Part shown: positions 1,260-36,519 of the stretch, in pieces
Layout of the letters: each line of letters opens with the position of its first letter
Position numbering within the stretch: the first letter of the stretch is position 1
NCBI GenBank assembly: GCA_964598515.1
Contig: CAZRBZ010000001.1
Span: 1-36,627 of the forward strand
Source of the DNA: Candidatus Woesearchaeota archaeon
GTDB taxonomy: Archaea; Nanobdellota; Nanobdellia; Pacearchaeales; GW2011-AR1
Direction: 5' to 3'
DNA length: 36,627 bases
The notes under the pieces: model-generated
Database searches by the model: none
Seen by the model: only the letters and a program-made list of their open reading frames with translations
Told to the model about the DNA's origin: nothing
Program-made: the position numbers and the translations under genes

Positions 1260-3086
1260 ATGTTTAAGAGTAAAAAGGGACAGGTGACAATCTTTATAAT
1301 TTTGGCTATAATTGTTGTTGTGGCAGGAGTTAGTATTTACTTATTTAGGGATACAATTATTACTAATAAAATACCTGTAAGTATTGAGCCTGTGCAAATT
1401 AATTTTTTAAATTGTATTGAAAGGGGAACTTTGACAGGGATTTCTATTTTAGAATCTAAGGGAGGATATATTGAGAATCCAGATTTTGTTCCTGGTTCTG
1501 TTTATATGCCTTTTTCTTCCGAATTAAATTTTGTGGGAACTCAAATCCCATATTGGCATTATATCAGTGGAAATAATATTGAAATGGAACAAATCCCAAG
1601 TATCGATGAGATGAATAAACAATTAGAATCTTATTTGGAGAATAAATTAATGAATTGTAATTTTGAAATATATGAAAATCAGGGTTATGAAATTGAGGCA
1701 GATGTTCCAAAGGTTGATGTTAAAATAAAAAATAATAATGTTCAAATTGATGTAGACATGGATTTATCTGTTAGTTTTGAAAATGAGATTTTTTTAATGA
1801 AAGATTTTTCTGTTGAAATTGATTCTTTGTTGGGGAATTTATATGGGGATGCAAAAAAAGTTTATGAATTGGAACAAGAAAATTTATTTTTAGAGAACTA
1901 TTCTATTGATGTTTTGTATTTGTATGCTCCTGTTGATGGTGTCGAATTAAGTTGTTCTCCTTTATTTTGGAATGTTGATGAATTTTATAATAATTTTTCG
2001 GAAGCTCTTGTTGCAAATATTTATTCATTAAAAAATAAGGGAAGAGAGGATGATTATTTTGCACTTAATCTTCCTGTTGATTCGGAATTAAGTTTTGTGA
2101 CTTCAACTGAATGGCCTAAAACATTTGAGATTACTAATGCGGATAATAATATTCTTGTTGCTAAACCCGTAGGTAACCAAGAAGGATTGGGAATTTTAGG
2201 ATTTTGTTATGTTCCGTATCATTTTGTTTATAATGTGCGGTATCCGATTTTAGTACAAGTGACTTCTTTTGGAGAAACTTTTCAATTTCCAATGGCAGTA
2301 ATTATAGATAGAAATATGCCGAGAAAAGGAAAAGAGGGTTCATCTTCTGTTGGAGAAGTTTCAGACATTTGTGAATATAAAAATAATAATTTATTGATTA
2401 ATTTGTATGATTCTGATTTAAATCCTGTTGAGGGGGAAATTTCTTATGAGTGTTTTGGAGCTAACTGTCATATTGGGTTTACGGAAAATGGTCAATTAAA
2501 TGGATTTTTTCCTCAGTGTGTTAATGGAAATGTTAAAATTTCAAGTGAAGGATTTAAAGATAGTTATGTGAATACAGGAATCAATGAGGAAGAGGTCGTT
2601 GTTATTCTAGATAAAGAATATGAATTGGAAGTTGAACTTTACACAGATAACAAATTATATTCTGGAAAAGCTATTGTAAATTTCATTGGTGAGGATTCTT
2701 CTTTTTCTTTGGTCTATCCAGAACAAAAAGAAGTTATTTTAAGTGAAGGTAAATATGATCTTGAAACTTATTTTTATAAAGATTCTTCTTTGAAGTTTGA
2801 GGAGACAACTACAGAATATTGTACTGACATTCCTAGTTCTGGAATTAAGGGATTTTTTGGATTTGAAGAGGAAAAATGTTTTGAAACAGTAATTCCTGAA
2901 CAAGAAATTGATAATGTTTTAGTTGGCGGGGGAAAATCTGATTATTATTTTATAGAACAAGAATTAAAAAATTCAAATAAGTTGATATTAAGAGGGAAAG
3001 AATTAAATGTTCCTAACTCTCTTGAGGAATTAACTCAAAATTATGAATTAATTGAAAGTCAAATATTAGGGGTTGAATTTAGATGA
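1260..3086 (+). CDS. large extracellular protein with type IV pilin-like (class III) signal peptide
   Basis: The N-terminus MFKSKKGQVTIFIILAIIVVVAGVSIYLF has a basic stretch, a KGQ motif, then an uninterrupted hydrophobic helix, as in archaeal prepilin signals. The stop overlaps the start of the giant gene (ATGA at 3083-3086). Confidence 0.75.
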   Translation: MFKSKKGQVTIFIILAIIVVVAGVSIYLFRDTIITNKIPVSIEPVQINFLNCIERGTLTGISILESKGGYIENPDFVPGSVYMPFSSELNFVGTQIPYWHYISGNNIEMEQIPSIDEMNKQLESYLENKLMNCNFEIYENQGYEIEADVPKVDVKIKNNNVQIDVDMDLSVSFENEIFLMKDFSVEIDSLLGNLYGDAKKVYELEQENLFLENYSIDVLYLYAPVDGVELSCSPLFWNVDEFYNNFSEALVANIYSLKNKGREDDYFALNLPVDSELSFVTSTEWPKTFEITNADNNILVAKPVGNQEGLGILGFCYVPYHFVYNVRYPILVQVTSFGETFQFPMAVIIDRNMPRKGKEGSSSVGEVSDICEYKNNNLLINLYDSDLNPVEGEISYECFGANCHIGFTENGQLNGFFPQCVNGNVKISSEGFKDSYVNTGINEEEVVVILDKEYELEVELYTDNKLYSGKAIVNFIGEDSSFSLVYPEQKEVILSEGKYDLETYFYKDSSLKFEETTTEYCTDIPSSGIKGFFGFEEEKCFETVIPEQEIDNVLVGGGKSDYYFIEQELKNSNKLILRGKELNVPNSLEELTQNYELIESQILGVEFR

Positions 3087-6000
3087 AAGCAAATAAATTA
3101 ATTTTAGGATTGGTTTTATTAGTTGGAGTTTTAGTATTTGCTTCTGCTGCTTATACGCATTCTACTTTCCAAGCAACTTCTAGTGGAACTAGGAGTGCTT
3201 TCGAAAAGGATATGGCGGATATTAGTTTTGATTCTTCTATGTGTCAAGAAGGTCAAGATTTTATTGTTCAAATTGCGCCTTTCGGTTGTGAACCCGCTGT
3301 TGTTAGAAGTGATTTATTGGAGGAACAAGATGTTCCTGTGTTTTGTAAATTGCAAGCTGTTAAAATAAATCCTTTTATTGATATAACTGCTATTAATTCT
3401 ATTGATATTAATATTCGAGGAGCATATCCTGAAGGAGTTAAAAGTGTGGGGTTTACTCCAAGTTATGATGCTTTGGGAAAGAATAGAAAATTAAATAATT
3501 TGCAGTGGGATGAAATTGGTTATGCAACAATTGTTTTGAGACAAAATCCTAATGAAAGTTCAATGTCTGATTTTGTAACTGGAAATTTAAGTGCAACATT
3601 TAGATATGATTTGGAAAATGCTTTTGGTCTTAGGAAACATACTTTTTATCTTCCTCTAATGGAGGACAATGAGTTTGATAGGTCTCTTGGGCAATATGCT
3701 TTTTTTAATAAGATGGGTTATCTGAGGGCAGAAGATGTTACAAAAGATTCTGCTTCAATTGCAATTTATTCTGGAAGATATGAATCTCCTTTTGGTAAGA
3801 GTAGGGAAGGAGAAATAAATAGACAAAGAATTGGAATGTATAATTTACAGGTTGGACAACAAACAAATAAAATTTATTTACCTGGTTTTGATTGTTTTTC
3901 TGCTGTTCAGTTTAGATTAGAAAATATTGAATTTCAAGATACTAGAGTTCGATTTAATATCAATTCGCAAATTTTTGAAGTTAAAGAAGATGAAAATTTT
4001 CTGGAGGGTAAATGCCGTGTTACAGATATTGAAAAAACTGGTTTGAATCAAATTGTTAAAGTGTCTTGTCAAGAAGATGAAGGGAGAGATACTTTTGATT
4101 TGAGAATTAGTCCAAAAATTAAATTGGAAATTAATGGTGTTGAAGGAGAATATGCAGTTGGAGATTATTTGTTTGAAACAGATGAAAGCAAACATGCTTA
4201 TTTAGGTTTTGTTGGAAGCCAGAGTTATGAAGCTAAAGATTTAGTTGCTTATGTGGTTATTGCGGATGCAAAAATGGCCAAATTGGGAGAGAGTGAAATT
4301 TTGGCTGCAGGAAAGTTGGGAGAAGCAAATCCCAATGAAAAGAATTTACTTGAAGAGGCTAAAAAAATTACAAGAATTTCTATTAAATTTTATAAATGGC
4401 TTATGGATGGTAAACATTTTCAAAGATTAAATTATTCTGAGAGTAAAATTATTGGTGGAACAAAGGTTGAAATAATTGGTTTTGGTTCTGAAAGTGATTA
4501 TCCTGTTACTTCTAAGATTGAAGAGTATTATGGTAAGGCTTTGGACGATTATGATTATATTTTTTCTAATTATCAGGGAGAAATTTATCCAGAAGATCAA
4601 AAAATTAGTTTAGGTGAAAAATCAGCTTATGCTAAAATGCTTTTGGCAAGGGATACTTCGCAGAAAAAAGATTTGAAGTTTTTTTGTGATGAGTTTGAAA
4701 GTAGTTATCCTGATTCTGAATTAGAAAGAGATTTTTGTGAGAATTTAATTTTATTAAGTAATCAGGGCGTTTCTACTAAAGATTTGATGATTGAGGGAGA
4801 TATTAAAAGAATTTCTTTTGAGGGGGTTTATCAACCAAGTATTGAAGATTATGGTATTGTATTGTATGTCCGAGAGAAGGGGGGAAATGTAGAATCTCAT
4901 GAACTTAGAAAGGAACAGATTCTATATCTTGATGAAAGTGGACAAAATTATGTACAGTTAGTTTCAATTACTGATGAGAATACAGTTGTTTTGAATTTTA
5001 ATATTGAAGGGAAAACAACACTTGCTAGAGCACAAGATATTTTAATTTCAGGGAATCGGGGTTTGAAAAAAGAAATTTCTAAAACTTTTGGAAATTATAC
5101 TTTTACGATTCATGATATTTATTTTGAGAGAGTTGCGAAAGTTTCTGTTGAACCAAGTATAAATTATGCTGGAAGTGAGATTGATTTTAATTTTGCAGTT
5201 GGAATTGAAAAAAGATTAATTCAACTTTCTCCTGAAATGACTGAAAATGCAATTGATAAACTTGATGATACTATTGAAACTTGGGAAAGTATTTCTTCTA
5301 CTTTGGGAGATACAGTTGATGTGCTTGAAAAAACTTGTTTGGCTGTTGGAGGGTTTTTGACTTTGAAGAATTTGTTATTTAATTCTGGAGGAGAATCTAT
5401 TGCAAGACAGGAAGTTATGAGTGGAAATGGGGGGTGGTATGAAAGATGTGCAGATATGGTTGCTGTGGGAGATTATAGGTCTGAAGGAGAGTGTTTGCAA
5501 GATAAGGCAGGTAATATTGATGATGAAGTTAATTTGTTGGCGGAGATGTTGAAAAGCCAGAATGAAGAGATAAAAAATATTCAAGAAGATGAAGAAGTTA
5601 GTCAGAGTCAAGGACTTTTTGGAACTAATGTTGTGAATACAACAAAATTAGTTGAAAAGTATTTACCTAAGGTTAAAGCTTCATTGAGGAAGAGAGGAGA
5701 ATTTATTGAGGATCCTACTGGAAAAGAAAAGGGGATTAGTGTTTCTTCTTTGGAAATTATTTTGACACCTGAGTATTGGAATAAGAATTTATTTAGTTTT
5801 GATTTATTGAAAAAGATTGAGTTGTATGCAAATATATTAAATAAAGGGGGGATGGATGTTTCTCAAACAAAAAGCTATAAATCTAAATTATTTATTGTCG
5901 TTAAACAATTAGATATAAATTCTAAAAATTCTTTGGATGTTAATAATTGGGCAAGTAGCGTTGGAATAACTTCTGATTATATTGATTTTATTAAGATTGG

Positions 6001-9000
6001 AGATAATGTTCAAGAATTGCCTTATGATGATTTGGTTTTTGAAGATTTGAAATTTTCAGAGGTTAAAGAATATGATGTGAATAAACTCTCTTCGCATGTT
6101 TATGTTTTGAATCAACTTTCTCAATTAAGTGGAAGATATTCTGATATGGACGTTAAGGGATTTATTGATGATTTGTACAATAATAGTTTTTTGAGTGATG
6201 CACAATATGATGATTTTAAGGGTGAAATAGGAACATCTCATGAAGTTAGTGAGTTGAATGTTATGTTACCGATTGTAAAAAATACTCCTGTTAAACTTTT
6301 ACAGGGTTCTGATGGAAGGAAATATATTTTAATTTTAGAGAAGTCTAAAACGGATAAGTTGAATATTTTGGTAGATGGGAATTATAAACCTTTTATTTAT
6401 AATAGAGATGGAAATAGATTGTCTATAAAAAATATTTCAAAGGATGTGAGAAATATATTTTGTAAGAAATATGATTCTAGCAGTTATAAGAATTCATATA
6501 AAAATCCAGAAATTAAGTATTATGAAACTGATCCTTACAAAGGTCTTCCTTCGGTTGTTCCTTTTGATACTAAAGACGGTTGGTATGCTTATGTTGAACA
6601 AAATATTGATTTTATGGGAGAAGTGAGATCTTATGATAAATCTGCGAGAGTAAATAGTTTTTGGTTATGTAATGTAGGAAATAATGGATTAGAAGAATTT
6701 AGTAAGGGAAATACTGGAGATGATATTTGTCAATTAATTAATTTAGGAACAGGTCAACCTTATAATCAATTTTCTGGATTGAAAACAAATGAGGCTGCAA
6801 GATTAATTAATCAGGCAGTTAATGCAATTGAGCAGGCTTCTAGAGCGTATAAGGATGGAGTTAAGGTTGTTGAAATAAATAATCAGCGAATTGAAGTTGG
6901 CAGTCCTGCAATAAGTAGTGCTTTAACTAAATGTGAAGATTATATGTCTCCTAAAGATTGTAATTTATTGTTCAATGTTTGTGATCCAGTTATTTGTCCT
7001 TCGAGTAGATGTGATTTTGGTGGACAGTATCCAGTTCAAGATGTTATTCAATCTGGAATTATTGGAAGTTTACTTTTATGTTTACCTAATTATCATGAGG
7101 ATATTTACATGCCAGTTTGTTTGACTGGAGTTAAATCTGGATTGGATAGTTATTTGTCTGTTATGAAATCTTATCAAAGTTGTTTACAAGAAAGTTTGGA
7201 TACTGGGAGTACTGTTGGTATTTGTGATCAAATTAATAGTATTTATATTTGTGAATTTTTCTGGAGGCAGGCTTTACCTTTAGCTGAATTAACTTTGCCT
7301 AAAATTGTGGGAGCAATCACTGGTGAAAATACTCGTGGAGGAGGAGAATATTCTAGTTTGACTACTGCATGGGACAATGCTAAAAATTCAGTTAACTTCT
7401 TTACTGAATTTTATGCAATTAATTCTTTTAATGCATTTAAGGCAAGAAGCCAGGAAGAGATTGGTAGTGAGGTTTGTCGAAGTTTTATTTCATTTAATTA
7501 TCCTGAAGGTCAAGGGATTTTAGATAGTTTAACTATTGCAAATAGTCCCCCTCAATACAGTGGTAATTTTGAAGCCATACCTTTTACCACTACAATTGTT
7601 CCACCTGTATCACAATATAAGGTGTTTTATCATATTTATGCTGGGGAAGATCAGGGGGCTTATTATAAGGTTTATTTAAGGGGTGGAAGTGGAAGTTCAT
7701 ATTATCAAGATACTTCTTCAGGAAGAATGGTTGCTTCTGGATATATTCCTGTTGGAGAGTATGCAACTGGAACAGAAGACTTTATTGCTCCTGAAGGTTA
7801 TAAAGAATTGTGTATAGCTGTTAATAATGAAGAAGAGTGTGGATTTAAAGAAGTGTCTACTAGTTTTGCTTTTGATTATGTTCGGGACCAATCTAGGCAG
7901 TCTCAAATAGAAAATACAAATATTAAATCGCAAGATGAATGTATTTCTGGGAGTGCCAATATTTATGGTTTGTTGAATTTAAATGTTCAAGAGGGAATTG
8001 CGAACACTGTTGACCCTGAAATTTATAATCAAGGTATTGTGAGAATTTGTGCGACGGATAATCCTGGTAGTTCTGATCCTTATTTAGGTAGTGAAGATCA
8101 GAGATGGATAGATGTTGGTTATTGTGGTGATTCAAATATTAGGTGTTGGATTGATCAGGAAAGTATTGACCGAGCTTTGGAATTTCAAACTTCTGTAAAT
8201 GAATCTTTAGAAGAATTGAGTGAAAAATTTAAAGAAAATTTAGAAAATGATAAGGGTTATTTGAATCCTGAGCAATTTGCTGAAAAGATTGACAACATTA
8301 CTAAAGAGAAAAATCGAGATAAAAGATTTGATATGATTAAAGAATTGTTTGATAAAGTTTATTTGAATAATCATAAAGCTTATTTATATTATTTACGGGC
8401 AGGGATTTATGAAGAAATTGTTCATGAGTTGTTTGCTAAATTGGATACTGGGGAGAAAAAAGGAATCAGAGAAGGTAGGCCTACATATGAAAATGAATAT
8501 AAGACTGTGCTAGATATTGTAACTGCTGAAGGTTTTGAATCGGGAGAGTTTGAATTTCATGATGCAAGGGCAGCTTTAAGGATGACATCAAATCAACCAA
8601 ATGTTTGTTATAAATTTATAAATAATGGGTGGGATTATGGTTGGTATTGGACTTTGGAATGTAATAAAATTGGAAGTTATAGTTCTTATGCAGAAAAAAA
8701 TATTGATTGGATAAGTGTAAATGAACCACTTGTTAATCCTTATTCTAGAAATACATTAACCAAAACTAGTAAAGAATTTATACCCAAGTTGAAGAAAAAA
8801 AATTATTTGGAGGGAATAGATTTGTTAATGAAAAGAGCAAAATTGAATAAGGAGGGGGGAATTGTAAATTCTCTTGGGCTTGCTAAAACATTTATTACAA
8901 TTGGAGACCTTATCTTTGATCATAGGGGACGTTTTTCGGAGGGAAGTGAATCACAACCGAGACTTCAATTATATTTTCAATATAGAGGGGAAAAATGGAA

Positions 9001-10558
9001 TTATTATCTTGGGCCATATGGAGCTTCTGAGGATTCAGATTGGATGGATCTTGATGTTTTTCCTGAAGATATGGAGTTATCTCAGAATGAAACTTTATTT
9101 TTAAAAATTATGGGAGATTTGAATTTTCTTGAAGGTGCAGCTGTTTTATTTGGAGATGTTTCATTAAATGAGTTGGGTAGTTTTGTAAAACAGACTCGTA
9201 TTGGGAAATGGACTTATGCATCTGCTTTGGAGGAAATTGAAAAATTTGGTTCTGGAACTTATGAAGATATGGGAGTTAAAGAAATGGTAGATGGATTTTA
9301 TGAGGATGGTTTATTGAGTAAGGAAGATTATATTAATTTTATTGATGAAGAACAGGATATTGGTATTTTTGGGAAACAGGGAGGCTATATTTGGACTGGC
9401 ACAGAGTTTGAAGCTAGAGAAACTTGCCCTATGCCTGAAGAACCTAGTGAAGAAGTTTTAAAATTGGGTAATGCTCGTGAAAGGGTGTTAAAAATAGTTG
9501 ATGAGTTAGTTGGGAAAAAAGCTTATATTGGGGTGAAGGGTTGTTTTAGTGCTGTTGAATATGTTTATGAGAAAGCAGGAGTTACTCATAGTTGTGTTTA
9601 TTCTGATAATGAAGGTAGGAGTTATTCTATTGGGGATGGAATTAGGATAGGTATCGATAAAAAATTGGTTAAAGGAAAATGGGTAATTATTTATCAAATG
9701 GCAACATATCCCACTAGAGATTGTAGTTTGAATAAAAAAGAAGGAGAAAATTTACCTATGTCTGATAAACTTGCTGAAATTCAACCAGGAGATATTTTAA
9801 GTTATGCTTATGATGATGATGATGGACATAATGTTATTTTCATTAAGTGGATTGATTCTGATATTTTGAAAGCAGAGGTTTTTGATTGGAATGGTCCAAG
9901 AGTGAATGGAAAGAAAACTTATCGAATAACTAATGTTTTGTTACAAGATGATGAACATCCGGTTTATATGTATTGGAAACCAATTATTTTGGGACAGGCT
10001 ACTGAAGAGACAGAAGCAGATGAAGTTAAAATTTCTTCCTTAGAGATTGAAGAGGAAGAAGAGATTGTTATTCAAGATACTACTGCTCCCGAGATTGTTG
10101 TACCTGTCGAAATTAATTATGTTGAATATACTTTAGATTCTGCAATTGAAAAAGCTGGAACTTTGAAAGGAGATTATTCTAGTTCTCAAGAGAATCAAGA
10201 TTTTATGGATGCTTTGTTGGCACAAGGAATAATTAATAGAGTTGAATTTTATAAGTATAGTAATAAATGGAAAAGGTATTCCAAAACCCCTCAAATGAGT
10301 GATTTGAGAACATTATTATTACTTATTAAAAAGAATGCAGGATTAGAAAATTCTATTGAAAAGATTCCTACATATGAATTTACTGGAGATGAAAGAGCTG
10401 TTTTTAATGAAGGAGAAGTATGTAGTAATTGTGGTGATGATGAAGATTGGTATACTCTCGGTTTTGGAAATCTTTGTGATGAGGAAGAATGTTTTGTTTT
10501 GGGAATTGCTTTAGGAGAGAATTGTTGGTATGAAAATAAAGAATGTTTAAAAAAATAA
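3083..10558 (+). CDS. giant (2,491 aa) cysteine-rich secreted protein with C-terminal NlpC/P60-like module
   Basis: Uninterrupted 7.5-kb ORF. Signal peptide MKANKLILGLVLLVGVLVFASAAY. Many Cys clusters (e.g. CEDYMSPKDCNLLFNVCDPVICPSSRC). Acidic linker EIEEEEEIV. Cys-rich C-terminal tail. The 4-nt overlap with the upstream gene implies translational coupling. Confidence 0.9.
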   Translation: MKANKLILGLVLLVGVLVFASAAYTHSTFQATSSGTRSAFEKDMADISFDSSMCQEGQDFIVQIAPFGCEPAVVRSDLLEEQDVPVFCKLQAVKINPFIDITAINSIDINIRGAYPEGVKSVGFTPSYDALGKNRKLNNLQWDEIGYATIVLRQNPNESSMSDFVTGNLSATFRYDLENAFGLRKHTFYLPLMEDNEFDRSLGQYAFFNKMGYLRAEDVTKDSASIAIYSGRYESPFGKSREGEINRQRIGMYNLQVGQQTNKIYLPGFDCFSAVQFRLENIEFQDTRVRFNINSQIFEVKEDENFLEGKCRVTDIEKTGLNQIVKVSCQEDEGRDTFDLRISPKIKLEINGVEGEYAVGDYLFETDESKHAYLGFVGSQSYEAKDLVAYVVIADAKMAKLGESEILAAGKLGEANPNEKNLLEEAKKITRISIKFYKWLMDGKHFQRLNYSESKIIGGTKVEIIGFGSESDYPVTSKIEEYYGKALDDYDYIFSNYQGEIYPEDQKISLGEKSAYAKMLLARDTSQKKDLKFFCDEFESSYPDSELERDFCENLILLSNQGVSTKDLMIEGDIKRISFEGVYQPSIEDYGIVLYVREKGGNVESHELRKEQILYLDESGQNYVQLVSITDENTVVLNFNIEGKTTLARAQDILISGNRGLKKEISKTFGNYTFTIHDIYFERVAKVSVEPSINYAGSEIDFNFAVGIEKRLIQLSPEMTENAIDKLDDTIETWESISSTLGDTVDVLEKTCLAVGGFLTLKNLLFNSGGESIARQEVMSGNGGWYERCADMVAVGDYRSEGECLQDKAGNIDDEVNLLAEMLKSQNEEIKNIQEDEEVSQSQGLFGTNVVNTTKLVEKYLPKVKASLRKRGEFIEDPTGKEKGISVSSLEIILTPEYWNKNLFSFDLLKKIELYANILNKGGMDVSQTKSYKSKLFIVVKQLDINSKNSLDVNNWASSVGITSDYIDFIKIGDNVQELPYDDLVFEDLKFSEVKEYDVNKLSSHVYVLNQLSQLSGRYSDMDVKGFIDDLYNNSFLSDAQYDDFKGEIGTSHEVSELNVMLPIVKNTPVKLLQGSDGRKYILILEKSKTDKLNILVDGNYKPFIYNRDGNRLSIKNISKDVRNIFCKKYDSSSYKNSYKNPEIKYYETDPYKGLPSVVPFDTKDGWYAYVEQNIDFMGEVRSYDKSARVNSFWLCNVGNNGLEEFSKGNTGDDICQLINLGTGQPYNQFSGLKTNEAARLINQAVNAIEQASRAYKDGVKVVEINNQRIEVGSPAISSALTKCEDYMSPKDCNLLFNVCDPVICPSSRCDFGGQYPVQDVIQSGIIGSLLLCLPNYHEDIYMPVCLTGVKSGLDSYLSVMKSYQSCLQESLDTGSTVGICDQINSIYICEFFWRQALPLAELTLPKIVGAITGENTRGGGEYSSLTTAWDNAKNSVNFFTEFYAINSFNAFKARSQEEIGSEVCRSFISFNYPEGQGILDSLTIANSPPQYSGNFEAIPFTTTIVPPVSQYKVFYHIYAGEDQGAYYKVYLRGGSGSSYYQDTSSGRMVASGYIPVGEYATGTEDFIAPEGYKELCIAVNNEEECGFKEVSTSFAFDYVRDQSRQSQIENTNIKSQDECISGSANIYGLLNLNVQEGIANTVDPEIYNQGIVRICATDNPGSSDPYLGSEDQRWIDVGYCGDSNIRCWIDQESIDRALEFQTSVNESLEELSEKFKENLENDKGYLNPEQFAEKIDNITKEKNRDKRFDMIKELFDKVYLNNHKAYLYYLRAGIYEEIVHELFAKLDTGEKKGIREGRPTYENEYKTVLDIVTAEGFESGEFEFHDARAALRMTSNQPNVCYKFINNGWDYGWYWTLECNKIGSYSSYAEKNIDWISVNEPLVNPYSRNTLTKTSKEFIPKLKKKNYLEGIDLLMKRAKLNKEGGIVNSLGLAKTFITIGDLIFDHRGRFSEGSESQPRLQLYFQYRGEKWNYYLGPYGASEDSDWMDLDVFPEDMELSQNETLFLKIMGDLNFLEGAAVLFGDVSLNELGSFVKQTRIGKWTYASALEEIEKFGSGTYEDMGVKEMVDGFYEDGLLSKEDYINFIDEEQDIGIFGKQGGYIWTGTEFEARETCPMPEEPSEEVLKLGNARERVLKIVDELVGKKAYIGVKGCFSAVEYVYEKAGVTHSCVYSDNEGRSYSIGDGIRIGIDKKLVKGKWVIIYQMATYPTRDCSLNKKEGENLPMSDKLAEIQPGDILSYAYDDDDGHNVIFIKWIDSDILKAEVFDWNGPRVNGKKTYRITNVLLQDDEHPVYMYWKPIILGQATEETEADEVKISSLEIEEEEEIVIQDTTAPEIVVPVEINYVEYTLDSAIEKAGTLKGDYSSSQENQDFMDALLAQGIINRVEFYKYSNKWKRYSKTPQMSDLRTLLLLIKKNAGLENSIEKIPTYEFTGDERAVFNEGEVCSNCGDDEDWYTLGFGNLCDEEECFVLGIALGENCWYENKECLKK
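9500..9960 (+). other. NlpC/P60- or CHAP-like papain-fold hydrolase module inside the giant protein
   Basis: The pattern GVKGCFSAVEYVYEKAGV ... EIQPGDILSYAYDDDDGHNVIFIKW matches the NlpC/P60 layout (G-x-C-S/F-G nucleophile helix, then PGD-hydrophobic ... H-V/I-hydrophobic). Cys codon at 9542-9544, His codon at 9827-9829. Confidence 0.5.
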
Positions 10559-11374: not shown

Positions 11375-11585
11375 ACTAGTTTATAGAAGAATTAGATTAT
11401 AAAGTTTTCTATTGTTGTAATTTATTAATGATTACAAATGGGGGTTTGAATTTCTCCTGAAATCAAAATCGATGAATTTTGACTTAAACCAGCGCAATCA
11501 CTTCTTGTGATAAAACTACTTGAATTTTTGAACTTTCAAATTTTGTTTCAGAATTAAAATTATTCTTCTAAAGAGGAATAAGATA

Positions 11586-11672
11586 TGCAAGGGACAGGAT
11601 TTGTGGGTCGTTCAAAGAACTCTCCGTAGCACAAAAGTTTAAACTTTGTGCTAAACCCAAGGTTTCGAACCT
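11586..11672 (-). pseudogene. tRNA-Leu 3' fragment: T-arm half AGGTTC, a ~64-nt hairpin-rich insert, then the last 17-18 nt of tRNA-Leu
   Basis: 11586-11603 is identical to 11682-11699 (CAAATCCTGTCCCTTGCA on the minus strand). AGGTTC at 11667-11672. The insert contains a stem of about 10 bp (TAGCACAAAG/CTTTTGTGCTA). Confidence 0.5.
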
Positions 11673-11681
11673 AAAAATAAA

Positions 11682-11764
11682 TGCAAGGGACAGGATTTGA
11701 ACCTGCGCAAGTATACACTACTGGAGCCTAAATCCAGCCCGTTTGACCACTCCGGCACCCCTGC
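11682..11764 (-). tRNA. tRNA-Leu (anticodon UAG), type II with long variable arm
   Basis: Hand fold: acceptor GCAGGGG/CCCTTGC plus discriminator A. Anticodon arm CTGGA-TTTAGGC-TCCAG. T-arm GCAGG-TTCAAAT-CCTGT. 83 nt. Confidence 0.9.
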
Positions 11765-11818
11765 ATTGTTTTGTGGTCAAATGGTTTACTGTTGAGTTAA
11801 AGTGACTGCGTCGACTTT

Positions 11819-11867
11819 GACTTGGTTGAACCTGAAAGGTGATGCCTGACCACTCCGGCATCCCCAC
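11819..11867 (-). pseudogene. tRNA-Leu-like 5' fragment (acceptor/D-arm plus T-arm remnant, no anticodon arm)
   Basis: GTGGGGATGCCGGAGTGGTCA shares 14/14 nt (TGCCGGAGTGGTCA) with the intact tRNA-Leu 103 nt downstream. It is followed by CAGGTTCAA (T-arm-like). No complementary 3' acceptor strand was found. Confidence 0.5.
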
Positions 11868-11895
11868 ATGTGATAATAAATGGAGAAATCTTGGG

Positions 11896-11903
11896 TATAA
11901 AAA
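11896..11903 (-). promoter_or_regulatory. TATA box (TTTTTATA on the minus strand) upstream of the tRNA-Leu locus
   Basis: Lies about 29 nt upstream of the 5' fragment at 11867. There is no comparable TATA directly upstream of the intact tRNA-Leu. Confidence 0.4.
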
Positions 11904-12165
11904 GGTTTAGAATTTATTTTTGAATGTGGCAAAAAATAAATTAATTGAATAAAAGAAAACTTCACTTTGTTCAATATCAATAAATAAATTTCACGAAGTA
12001 ATTCGGAAATTTAAGAAAATAATTAATAGGATAATTTAAGAAATGAATGGGATAATTATTTATTTCTGGAAGAGCGAGCAAAAAGTAAATCTATGCTTAG
12101 CGATTTAATGAAGTGGGTAGTTGGTTTTGATTAGTAATAAATCTTGGAATAATATATAAGAAAAG

Positions 12166-13928: not shown

Positions 13929-14036
13929 GATTTGGCGTTTTGTCTCGTTGATTTTCGCAGGGACAGAATTCTTAGAGATTATAAGTTAGCTTAAGCTCTA
14001 AAAAAGTTATTTAAACGCTTGGTGATACTTGTTAGT

Positions 14037-14945
14037 ATGACGTCTAAGGTAAAATTAACTTTTTTAGGTACGAGTGATCAAATTCCTAGTCGGAGCAGGA
14101 ATCATACTTCTATTTTATTAAATTTTAATGAGGAAAATATTTTAATTGATTGTGGAGAGGGAACTCAAAGGCAATTTAGGAAAGCTAATTTGAATCTTTG
14201 TAAGATTACAAAAATTTTAATTAGTCATTGGCATGGAGATCATGTTTTAGGTTTACCGGGATTACTATCTACTTTGGCACTTAGTGGTTATAACAAATCT
14301 TTGGAAATTTATGGACCTAAAGGAATTAAATCAAAAATTGATACTATGTTGAAATTATATAATTTTCATCGAGAGTATAATTTAATTATTAAAGAAATTG
14401 AATCAGGTATCTTTTTTGAAAATGAAGGTTTTTATTTGGAAGCAGAAGAGATGGAACATGGTATTCCTTGTTTGGCGTATGGATTTATCAAAAAAGATTA
14501 TTTGAGAATTGATAAAAAGAAATTTGAAAAATCTGGATTAAAAATTGGCCCAGAATTAAAAAAATTAAAGGAAGGTAAAAATATTAAAATTGATGGAAAA
14601 GAGTATAAATTTAAGGATTTTACTTTTACCGAGGATAAAAAAAAGGTCTCTATTGTAATGGATACAAAGTTGAATAAAAGAATAATCCCTTTTGTTAAAA
14701 ATGCAGACTTGTTTATCTCTGAGAGTACTTATTCTTCTGAATTAGAAAAGGAAGCAGAGGAACATTTGCATTTAACTGTTGGCCAAGTTGCAAATATTGC
14801 TAAAAAGGCAAAAGTGAAGAAATTAATTTTGACTCATGTTAGTTCAAGATATTTGAAAGATTTGAAAAGTTTATTGGATGAATCAAAAAAAATCTTTAAA
14901 GAAAGTTATTTGCCTCGAGATTTAGATTTTTTTATTTTGGAATGA
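14037..14945 (+). CDS. rnz: ribonuclease Z (tRNA 3' endonuclease, metallo-beta-lactamase fold)
   Basis: LTFLGTS start and HxHxDH motif (SHWHGDHVLGLPGLL). About 300 aa. The ATG at 14037 is in frame within ORF 14019..14945. Confidence 0.9.
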   Translation: MTSKVKLTFLGTSDQIPSRSRNHTSILLNFNEENILIDCGEGTQRQFRKANLNLCKITKILISHWHGDHVLGLPGLLSTLALSGYNKSLEIYGPKGIKSKIDTMLKLYNFHREYNLIIKEIESGIFFENEGFYLEAEEMEHGIPCLAYGFIKKDYLRIDKKKFEKSGLKIGPELKKLKEGKNIKIDGKEYKFKDFTFTEDKKKVSIVMDTKLNKRIIPFVKNADLFISESTYSSELEKEAEEHLHLTVGQVANIAKKAKVKKLILTHVSSRYLKDLKSLLDESKKIFKESYLPRDLDFFILE

Positions 14946-18578: not shown

Positions 18579-19253
18579 TTAAGGTTTAGTCCATTTAATC
18601 TCGTAATAGGTTATTTGGTTTTCTTCATCTACAATTGCTAGAAGTACGTTTTTGTTTGTTGAGTGTGCTACCCTATTTTTTGCTGCGAATTCATGCCATG
18701 TTGTTTTATTGTTTTCGTGATCTGTGAATATAATCCATTTTGAATGTTCTTTTCCTGGTTTTTTTCCTTTTTCATATGCTCTGAATTCTGCACCGAATTT
18801 TAATGCTGTTTTTATTACATATCCTTTAATTCTTAAATCTTTGAATACTGCATATTTTATTAGAAATTTTTTATCTGCTTTTGTAAATTTTTGGATTAGT
18901 TGATCAGCTGTTAGCAATTTATTGTTTTGATATATATCCATTTTTTCATTTTGAACTAAAAATAATCCTTCAGATAAGGTGTATTTTATTTTATCCTCAA
19001 TATGTTCTCCGAATGAAGATTGTTTGCAATAAGAATATGCTTGTTTTGAATTGGTTGTTAATGTGTTTCCTATTAAATGTGCGATGATTTCTTTTTTTGG
19101 GAATTTTTCTTCTTTTTTTTCTTTTGTGGTGGGCACTATTTTTTTGGGTGTTGAATTAGCTTTCTTTTTCACCGGTTTCTTTTTTGTTGATTTTTTAAAA
19201 GCCTTTTTTTTCTTTGTTTCTCTTTTTTGTTTACCAAATACAAATAGTGACAT
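18579..19253 (-). CDS. endA: tRNA-splicing endonuclease EndA with Lys-rich N-terminal extension
   Basis: The catalytic domain LRIKGYVIKTALKFGAEFRAYEKGKKPGKEHSKWIIF ... RVAHSTNKNVLLAIV matches the archaeal EndA signature. Confidence 0.9.
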   Translation of the reverse strand: MSLFVFGKQKRETKKKKAFKKSTKKKPVKKKANSTPKKIVPTTKEKKEEKFPKKEIIAHLIGNTLTTNSKQAYSYCKQSSFGEHIEDKIKYTLSEGLFLVQNEKMDIYQNNKLLTADQLIQKFTKADKKFLIKYAVFKDLRIKGYVIKTALKFGAEFRAYEKGKKPGKEHSKWIIFTDHENNKTTWHEFAAKNRVAHSTNKNVLLAIVDEENQITYYEIKWTKP

Positions 19254-35418: not shown

Positions 35419-36519
35419 ATGGCAAATAAAAAAATTAATTCAGAGGATTTATTTTCTTCAGTTTCTGATTCAGTTATTGAAGGAAAAAAGTTTGAAAAGG
35501 ATTTTGTTAATGTTTTGAAGATGGTTGCTCCTGGAACAAGTCTTAGAATTGCATTAGATGATTTGCTTAGAGCTAAAATGGGTGCATTGATTGTTTTTGA
35601 TAATGGTAATATTAATCCCCTTGCAGAAGGAGGGTTTAAAATCAATTCTAAATTTAGTTCTCAAAAATTAGTTGAATTATGTAAAATGGATGGGGCTATT
35701 CTTGTTTCTTATGATGCTAAAGATATTCTTTCTGCAAATACTTTGTTGGTTCCAGATAGTTCTATTTTTACTAAAGAAACTGGAACAAGGCATAAAGCTG
35801 CGGAGAGAACTGCTAATCAAGCAAATACAATTGCTATTGCTGTTTCTGAGAGAAAGAATAAAATTTCACTTTATTATGGAAAAACTTATTACCAATTGGA
35901 AAGAAGTTCTGAAATTTTAAGACGAGCTTCTGAAACTCTTCAAATTTTGGAAAAGCAAAGAGATGTTTTTGACGAATTTTTGGAAAATTTAAATTCTTTG
36001 GAATTACAACGTATTTCTACAATCAATGATGTTTGTTCTGTTTTGCAAAGAGCGGAAATCATTAAAAGAGTTGAAGCGATTGTTCAAAGATATTTGATTG
36101 AATTGGGGCGTGAAGGAATGATTGTTCGTATGAGATTAAAAGAATTAATGGGTACTTTAGAGAAAGAAGAAGAGTTAGTTTTAAAAGATTATTTTGGTTC
36201 TAATCATTCTAATTCTTTAGATATTTTGGAAAAAATGGATTTTGATTTTTTATTGGAGCCTTTGAATATTTCTAGAATATTATTTGAAGAGTTGCATGAT
36301 AAATCTGTTTCTCCCAAAGGTATGAGACTTTTAGGTAAAACTAATCTTTTAGAGAGATATGTGGATTTATTGATTGGGAATTTTGAGAATTTTAATGATA
36401 TTCTTTCTGCTAAGAATGAGAAATTGTTGGAAGTTTTGGAAAGTGAGGCAATGGTTAGTTTTTTTAGAGAGGAAATTTATAATTTGAAGGAGAAGGTTAG
36501 TTTGGGTAGGCGTATTTAA
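35419..36519 (+). CDS. disA: DisA-type diadenylate cyclase (DNA integrity scanning protein-like)
   Basis: DAC-domain motifs GALIVF, MDGAILV and TGTRHKAAER. A helical linker and a C-terminal helix-hairpin-helix-like end. 366 aa, as in bacterial DisA. Confidence 0.85.
   Translation: MANKKINSEDLFSSVSDSVIEGKKFEKDFVNVLKMVAPGTSLRIALDDLLRAKMGALIVFDNGNINPLAEGGFKINSKFSSQKLVELCKMDGAILVSYDAKDILSANTLLVPDSSIFTKETGTRHKAAERTANQANTIAIAVSERKNKISLYYGKTYYQLERSSEILRRASETLQILEKQRDVFDEFLENLNSLELQRISTINDVCSVLQRAEIIKRVEAIVQRYLIELGREGMIVRMRLKELMGTLEKEEELVLKDYFGSNHSNSLDILEKMDFDFLLEPLNISRILFEELHDKSVSPKGMRLLGKTNLLERYVDLLIGNFENFNDILSAKNEKLLEVLESEAMVSFFREEIYNLKEKVSLGRRI

Follow-up and report, generated by a model that had tools for sequence, protein, structure and literature searches.

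How does an intact tRNA-Leu(UAG) gene come to lie between a copy of its own beginning and a copy of its own end? Such an arrangement is present on the minus strand of the DNA analysed here (the window, that is, the whole stretch of 36,627 nt from contig CAZRBZ010000001.1, Candidatus Woesearchaeota archaeon), which belongs to a low-GC (~29%) DPANN archaeon of the Pacearchaeota/Woesearchaeota kind. The original prediction for this locus listed three possible explanations: footprints of integrative elements that target tRNA genes, decayed tandem tRNA copies, or a split tRNA or T-loop intron to be processed by EndA and RNase Z. The layout on which they were built has been borne out, since all of its components were found again, in the order TATA-like box, 21-nt 5' piece, 82 nt of further sequence, intact tRNA, 9 nt, a 69-nt hairpin-rich stretch that starts with AGGTTC, and a 19-nt tail (Table 1). 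The step of 103 nt from the fragment to the intact tRNA (11867 to 11764) holds, as do the T-arm-like repeat and the segment antisense to the D-loop, both processing enzymes are encoded nearby, and the 3' copy, previously given as 17-18 nt, is exact over 19 nt. The intact tRNA-Leu(UAG) was recognized by ARAGORN. Near-identical genes are found in the relatives L008, L045 and L133, and this intact copy is the sole functional gene among the full and partial ones. The gene for transcription factor B (TFB) is located upstream of the locus and a LysM protein gene downstream, with LeuRS nearby; there are no integrase or transposase genes in the window.

Table 1. Features of the tRNA-Leu locus and the processing enzymes encoded near it, in window coordinates.
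Feature	Coordinates	Strand	Basis or remark
TATA-like box TTTTTATA, tRNA-Leu promoter	11896..11903	-	Sequence; motif conserved in relatives
5' tRNA-Leu piece GTGGGGATGCCGGAGTGGTCA, tRNA positions 1-21	11847..11867	-	Sequence; 29 nt past the TATA
Rest of the 103-nt upstream insertion (X)	11765..11846	-	Comparison with L008 and L045
T-arm-like CAGGTTCAA inside X	11826-11834	-	9/9 repeat
Anti-D-loop CCATTTGACCAC inside X, adjoining the gene	11773-11784	-	11/12 complementary to the D-loop
Intact tRNA-Leu(UAG)	11682..11764	-	ARAGORN; Rfam RF00005, 55.6 bits
Trailer/spacer TTTATTTTT, 9 nt, oligo-T	11673..11681	-	Same 9 nt in L133
AGGTTC	11672-11667	-	Sequence
Y element body, 69 nt	11604..11672	-	Covariance model R1
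Y P1, 5' strand GGTTCG	11666-11671	-	Alignment to model
Y H0, AACC-TTG-GGTT	11654-11664	-	Alignment to model
Y H1 hairpin	11627-11653	-	Alignment to model
Y H2 region, with hairpin GTTC-TTT-GAAC at 11610-11620	11605-11626	-	Alignment to model
Tail CAAATCCTGTCCCTTGCAT, tRNA positions 56-73 plus one base	11585..11603	-	Exact repeat of 11699-11681
RNase Z	14019-14945		Encoded near the locus
EndA	18579-19253		Encoded near the locus

Both repeats of the tRNA exceed chance. The window contains two copies of the 17-mer from the tRNA 3' end (0.09 expected) and two of the D-arm 14-mer TGCCGGAGTGGTCA (0.04 expected), for which the identity of 14 out of 14 claimed for the 5' piece was found again; none of 100 shuffles reached two occurrences in either case.

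Elsewhere in the window, the intergenic DNA that separates the tail copy from the LysM gene (11400-11584) is rich in palindromes (e.g., TTTGAAAGTTCAAA and ATCACAAGAAGTGAT). L008 has nothing corresponding to this DNA, which may consist of additional inserts in decay. An ORF of 2491 aa (3083-10558, plus strand) has no Pfam match, and in several relatives its homologs are oriented convergently with the tRNA-Leu locus. At 35419-36519 (plus strand) this DPANN archaeon encodes a DisA-type diadenylate cyclase (DAC and DisA linker domains).

We have compared the locus with those of 80 species-level relatives fetched through the TFB gene, which is followed by tRNA-Leu in most of them. Several carry a second copy of the tRNA 3' end ~80 nt downstream of the gene, and the stretch between the two is conserved. 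A scan of metagenomes with a pattern anchored in the tRNA-Leu D-arm (the anchor plus TTCGA...GGTTT) retrieved 30 loci, nearly all of them with the full element and the tail. These sequences form a family of conserved structured elements of ~70 nt, which we call Y, situated after tRNA-Leu genes in dozens of Pacearchaeota/Woesearchaeota-like genomes and metagenomes. We found no description of it in a literature search, and when the window region and four strong members were compared with Rfam, families other than tRNA gave chance-level weak matches only. Y is a previously undescribed family that is not in Rfam. Rfam gave no match at permissive thresholds, and an identity as a known self-cleaving ribozyme or any other known RNA was therefore rejected.

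The architecture of Y is closely tied to the tRNA next to it. The element begins with GGATTCGAACC, the exact reverse complement of T-arm positions 52-62 (11 nt), followed by a GGTT of its own, two more hairpins and a tail equal to tRNA positions 56-73; a tail boundary at C56 is common to most members. In consensus form, the tRNA is followed by 4-20 nt, (G)GATTCGAACC, a loop, GGTT, the variable hairpin H1, the H2 hairpin (GCG-A-GGAA-loop-TTCC-GA-CGC), a C, and CGAATCC with the remaining tRNA 3' end. The antisense segment pairs, in the single strand of tRNA sense, with both the GGTT and the CGAATC of the tail, generating a four-way junction with the stems P1 (GATTCG/CGAATC), H0, H1 and H2. The junction core is conserved, while the tips of the hairpins vary.

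A MAFFT alignment misplaced the variable hairpins, so that RNAalifold found no structure in it, and a hand-structured seed and covariance models were used instead. The model R1, whose seed comprised six members and left the window out, produced 26 matches at E<0.01 in ~600 kb, the strong full-length ones directly 3' of a tRNA that is almost always tRNA-Leu. It recognized the window copy (11585-11672, minus strand) with 37.4 bits (E ~2e-8). On the model alignment 93.7% of cells pair (72.7% in shuffles, 32-54% with slid partners), 130 cells have changed on both sides against 38.7 expected, and covariation is seen for 12 of the 12 pairs of H1 and 6 of the 7 of H2; the alignment was fitted to the model and these figures lean to the structure, but independent unconstrained folds agree, with the same four-way junction appearing in about half of 22 members. 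G-U pairs (63) are far more numerous than A-C pairs (8), indicating that the structure belongs to the tRNA-sense strand, either as RNA or as single-stranded DNA.

The window copy lies where the members of the family lie, behind a 9-nt spacer that follows the tRNA and ahead of the exact 19-nt copy of the tRNA end, and is a weakened Y. The first six bases of its tail (CAAATC) form the 3' strand of P1, which opposite GGTTCG retains five of its six pairs and has one C-A mismatch, and an alternative is preferred by the unconstrained fold. With this mismatch and a position behind a T5 terminator, the copy is probably inert.

The distribution of Y is patchy. It was detected in ~6-8 of the 80 species-level relatives, scattered on the TFB tree, and is missing in the closest relatives of the window (L007, L008 and L133). 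The host genes are Leu(UAG), Leu(CAG), Leu(CAA), Leu(UAA) and Leu(AAG). Genes for tRNA-Leu with the AAG anticodon were seen at L010 (3995-4077), L011 (4303-4387), L035, L040, L067, L072 and L096 (~999-1083); A34 is unusual in archaeal tRNAs and is normally avoided.

Tandem Y units occur in L091, L098, L093 and L105. In one metagenome, copies of ~94% identity are located behind Leu(CAA) and Leu(UAG), one of the two contigs breaking inside the element, and a further contig carries two family members, one canonical and following Leu(CAA), the other related and following Arg(CCU). The element is thus probably multi-copy within genomes, judging by these two cases, one of which assumes that two contigs of a metagenome come from one organism. 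Decayed copies were found in L032, L087, L101 and L107, and interrupted or truncated ones are also common. Short hairpins of the form ATTCGAACC-loop-GGTT(NN)CGAATCC, devoid of H1 and H2, are present in L012, L026 and L105 and look like collapsed derivatives of Y. Patchy, tandem, decayed and linked to several tRNAs, Y behaves like a dispensable, duplicating element. No gene typical of mobile elements (transposase, integrase or other) was recurrent within 3.5 kb of Y, where clustering gave syntenic host genes alone. A scan of viral contigs returned nine matches, all of them attributable to chance (coding DNA or reverse-strand tRNA-Ser), and we found no free or virus-borne copy.

In most cases the tail is the same as the end of the tRNA that it follows, even in clades with an altered acceptor stem, and in the window it matches the tRNA (A57) at the expense of a P1 pair. 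There are exceptions. The distal tail of L093, located behind a Leu(CAA) gene, is of Leu(CAG) type (14 of 15 nt identical to the gene of L039); L100 and L105 share the same tRNA and the same Y with different tails; in L091 and L026 the tail retains A57 where the tRNA has G57; and the Arg-linked copy of L116 has a foreign tail. From these foreign and hybrid tails we infer that a unit brings its tail along and that sequence from the adjacent tRNA replaces this tail later.

The left boundary of the window copy can be located by comparison with L133. Both share the trailer TTTATTTTT and diverge exactly at 11672, the first base of Y, so that the spacer looks like the host's own terminator with Y placed behind it, an argument that concerns nine T-rich bases and a single comparison. 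For the right boundary, the empty-site pairs L010/L011 and window/L008 (downstream) were not clean enough to fix it.

On the 5' side, the comparison with L008 reveals a clean insertion of 103 nt between a conserved promoter and the tRNA. The promoter motif TTCTAAACCTTTTTATACCC is kept in L007, L008, L045 and L133, at an equal distance to the start of the tRNA or, in the window and L045, to the start of the 5' fragment. The promoter that had been noticed in front of the fragment is indeed there; in L007, L008 and L133 the same motif stands at the same distance directly before the tRNA. The 5' piece, with the acceptor strand GTGGGGA, is identical (21 of 21 nt) to the 5' end of the tRNA-Leu of L080. 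A homologous insertion in L045 (~65% identity) has the head GCGGGGG; its ends are conserved with those of the window insertion (GGC behind the head, TAAACCATTTGACCACAAA ahead of the gene) and the interior has diverged. The gene is of GCAGGGG type in all four relatives, which makes the heads of both insertions look foreign. The layout of this 5' unit mirrors that of Y (a copy of a tRNA end, a structured stretch and a segment antisense to a tRNA loop), although its fold is neither significantly stable nor convincingly common to the only two examples, the window and L045. Since no convincing TATA for the intact gene was found inside the insertion, the tRNA is probably transcribed from the old promoter, behind ~100 nt of leader. 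A third variant of 5' insert was seen in L096 (880-1000), where a partial tRNA-Leu copy (positions 1-34 and 32-48) precedes the intact gene and ~60 nt with three hairpins break it at the anticodon loop.

Taken together, these observations suggest that neither partial copy is a part of the tRNA-Leu gene itself and that both are footprints left at its flanks by small non-coding insertion elements, a reading to which we give a probability of about one half. In the best reading these elements take no part in the production of tRNA-Leu. Among the three explanations offered at the outset the footprints of integrative elements fit best, with the qualification that a random scar would be less specific than the 3' piece. 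The lack of a recurrent mobile-element gene within 3.5 kb of Y, and of free or virus-borne copies, counts against this reading. There are precedents for both sides: casposons and integrase elements target tRNA-Leu genes and leave duplicated 3' ends (PMC4779613), and a tRNA 5' fragment upstream of an intact gene has been attributed to a mobile element (PMC3293823). Under the insertion reading, Y would insert just past the trailer of a host tRNA, within a few nucleotides of the 3' end of the gene, bringing a tail from an earlier tRNA site. Replication slippage or unequal exchange between the tRNA 3' end and the tail would then give rise to tandem units, and with repeated exchange the local tRNA sequence would gradually overwrite the tail, the tandem arrays being possible intermediates of this replacement. 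The units would finally be lost or decay. The 103-nt 5' unit would result in a long leader transcribed from the old promoter and taken off by RNase P.

A different possibility, which we regard as rather unlikely but worth serious consideration, is that Y is a working RNA, a structured 3' trailer co-transcribed with tRNA-Leu. In this case the antisense T-arm segment and the tRNA-like tail could act in cis or in trans on the folding or 3' processing of the pre-tRNA, or, as a decoy, engage factors recognizing the 3' end of tRNA-Leu. Most members have only 4-20 nt free of any T5 run between the tRNA and Y, making co-transcription likely, and in several a T-run follows the tail. The strong covariation, the abundance of G-U pairs on the tRNA-sense strand and the conserved junction core with variable tips speak for a working RNA, and the Y subfamilies partly track the host clades of the TFB tree; compensatory changes within such clades could reflect selection in place, i.e., a host function. 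Against this, ~90% of the related species, the closest ones included, do without Y, and decayed, interrupted, truncated and tandem copies are frequent. A terminator-like T-run stands before the element in high-scoring members such as L026 (T8), L011, L098 and the window (T5), the tail of the window copy tracks the tRNA even where this breaks P1, and no Rfam family corresponds to Y.

A more doubtful alternative is that the repeats are attL/attR scars, left after a plasmid or virus with a tyrosine recombinase integrated in tRNA-Leu and was mostly deleted, so that an att copy and the adjacent arm remain. The window locus does have direct repeats of the 3' part of the tRNA, and the repeat begins inside the T-loop, a common crossover position of integration. 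Larger inserts are found between tRNA-Leu 3' fragments of 18-42 nt in L036, L095 and L013, and tRNA 3' ends are standard integration sites in archaea (PMC4779613, PMC3293823). The difficulty lies in the identical left edge of the retained piece across dozens of independent lineages, which random deletions would not produce. The inverted core site expected to the left of the tail is absent, there is no integrase in the window or near the family members, and no viral contig carries Y. Moreover, a crossover in the T-loop predicts a foreign tail on the tRNA and the host tail in the distal position, the opposite of what is seen in L093.

That the fragments are decayed neighbours from a former tandem array of tRNA-Leu genes appears improbable, and would apply mainly to the 5' piece. 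Pairs of Leu(CAG) and Leu(UAG) genes do exist in L026, L032, L037, L039, L050 and L052, the 5' unit also keeps the T-arm sequence CAGGTTCAA, and L096 has its upstream partial copy. Yet the D-arm of the fragment is of UAG type and not of the CAG type of the usual upstream neighbour, and the promoter is directly at the tRNA in the closest relatives. On the 3' side the unit has a conserved fold of its own that is not that of a tRNA, and decay leaves its covarying four-way junction unexplained. The evidence does not clearly favour this second of the three initial explanations.

There is very little to recommend a fourth reading, in which Y would be the RNA of an RNA-guided system, the junction acting as a compact scaffold and the 18-nt tail, with its match to the adjacent tRNA, as a 3' guide for an unlinked protein that homes to, or regulates at, tRNA genes. 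The 5' unit, with its tRNA head and structured stretch, would be the mirror-image 5'-guide counterpart. The proposal takes its model from transposon-encoded guide RNAs and from the tRNA-homing crRNAs of CRISPR-associated transposons, but no TnpB/Cas12-like effector was found beside Y, nor any recurrent protein family other than syntenic host genes.

Finally, splicing by the nearby EndA, either of a split tRNA or of a T-loop interrupted by a non-canonical intron, was suggested by the resemblance of AGGTTC, insert and AAATCC... to a broken T-loop and by the presence of EndA and RNase Z in the window, but is very unlikely at this locus: the bulge-helix-bulge motif (two 3-nt bulges, 4-bp helix) occurs at no useful junction, with 4 loose motifs over 11540-11930 (minus strand) against 4.1 in shuffles, the four-way junction is bulge-free, the family members have GATTCG and not the T-stem 5' strand ahead of the insert, the pieces cover positions 1-21 and 56-73 while 22-55 exist only in the intact gene, and this conserved gene lies intact upstream with its own T-run terminator.

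Insertion next to tRNA genes is not restricted to Y, and other relatives display different small inserts with the same logic, an antisense piece together with a copy of the tRNA end. In L132 (1430-2050), repeated units behind tRNA-Leu combine 15 nt antisense to the T-arm (GGACAGGATTTGAAC) with a hairpin and with a copy of 10 nt from the end of the tRNA. In L135 (2860-2915), and likewise in L136-L138, 13 nt of the tRNA-Leu end recur 37 nt downstream, and the GTGAGGA ahead of this copy pairs with it in an acceptor-stem-like hairpin. Other tRNAs are involved as well: a tRNA-Arg(UCU) in L007 (1044-1119, minus strand) is followed by a hairpin insert and an exact 17-nt copy of its 3' end ~65 nt downstream, and a tRNA-Cys in L114 (5813-5935) by a short hairpin insert and an imperfect partial copy of ~8-10 nt. 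Larger inserts are represented by a module of two genes (264-293 aa and ~113 aa) beside tRNA-Leu in L036 (4231-5355), L095, L013 (3907-5110) and L031; in the first three it lies between tRNA-Leu 3' copies and in L031 it is cut by the contig end. The larger protein is weakly nucleotidyltransferase-like, and TTACGTA...TTACGTAAT palindromes are found ahead of the genes. We considered this cassette as a mobiliser of Y and dropped it: it has no integrase domains, and its 690 homologs are widespread in unrelated contexts free of tRNA genes. The variety of small and larger inserts associated with tRNA fragments points to tRNA 3' flanks as a general hotspot in this lineage, which agrees with the casposon and integrase cases (PMC4779613) and with the 5' fragment left by a mobile element (PMC3293823).

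What the locus contributes is a concrete, searchable object, a conserved T-arm-pairing element of ~70 nt with a tRNA 3' tail in small-genome DPANN archaea. As selfish DNA, Y would illustrate the remodelling of tRNA flanks in highly reduced genomes and the origin of partial tRNA copies that can mislead tRNA annotation and searches for split tRNAs; as a working RNA, it would found a new class of RNAs linked to tRNAs. With the covariance model there is a direct handle on these two readings.

Among the known systems, archaeal bulge-helix-bulge introns and split or permuted tRNAs resemble the window locus in having a T-loop apparently broken by a structured insert and an EndA gene in the genome, but here there is neither a bulge-helix-bulge nor a 5' exon ahead of the insert, and the intact gene stands alongside. 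MITE/PATE-like derivatives of IS200/IS605 elements are miniature and non-autonomous and form single-strand hairpins, and the insertion of IS200/IS605 adjoins a 4-5-nt target and causes no duplication. Y shares with them its small size, richness in hairpins, strand-specific structure, multiple decaying copies and lack of coding capacity; it differs in that no partner transposase was found for it, in the tRNA tail that travels with the unit and in the 11-nt antisense T-arm segment. For the 5' side the nearest parallel is the tRNA-Thr of Caldiarchaeum subterraneum, where a 5' fragment upstream of the intact gene has also been read as the integration of a mobile element, although fragment and gene flank there a recombinase-encoding element of 1.8 kb (PMC3293823) and in the window 82 nt of non-coding DNA. 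The casposons and tyrosine-integrase elements of Methanosarcina share with Y the tRNA-Leu target, the direct repeat of the tRNA 3' end on the far side and the occurrence of tandems and remnants, the casposons having 14-bp target duplications at tRNA-Leu 3' ends (PMC4779613). In comparison with these elements (PMC4779613), the Y unit is only ~90 nt long and non-coding, its ends are not mutual inverted repeats, no Cas1 or integrase gene was found near it, and its repeat comprises positions 56-73 (18-19 nt) instead of CGCA plus trailer; what it has of its own is the conserved four-way junction and the segment antisense to the T-arm.
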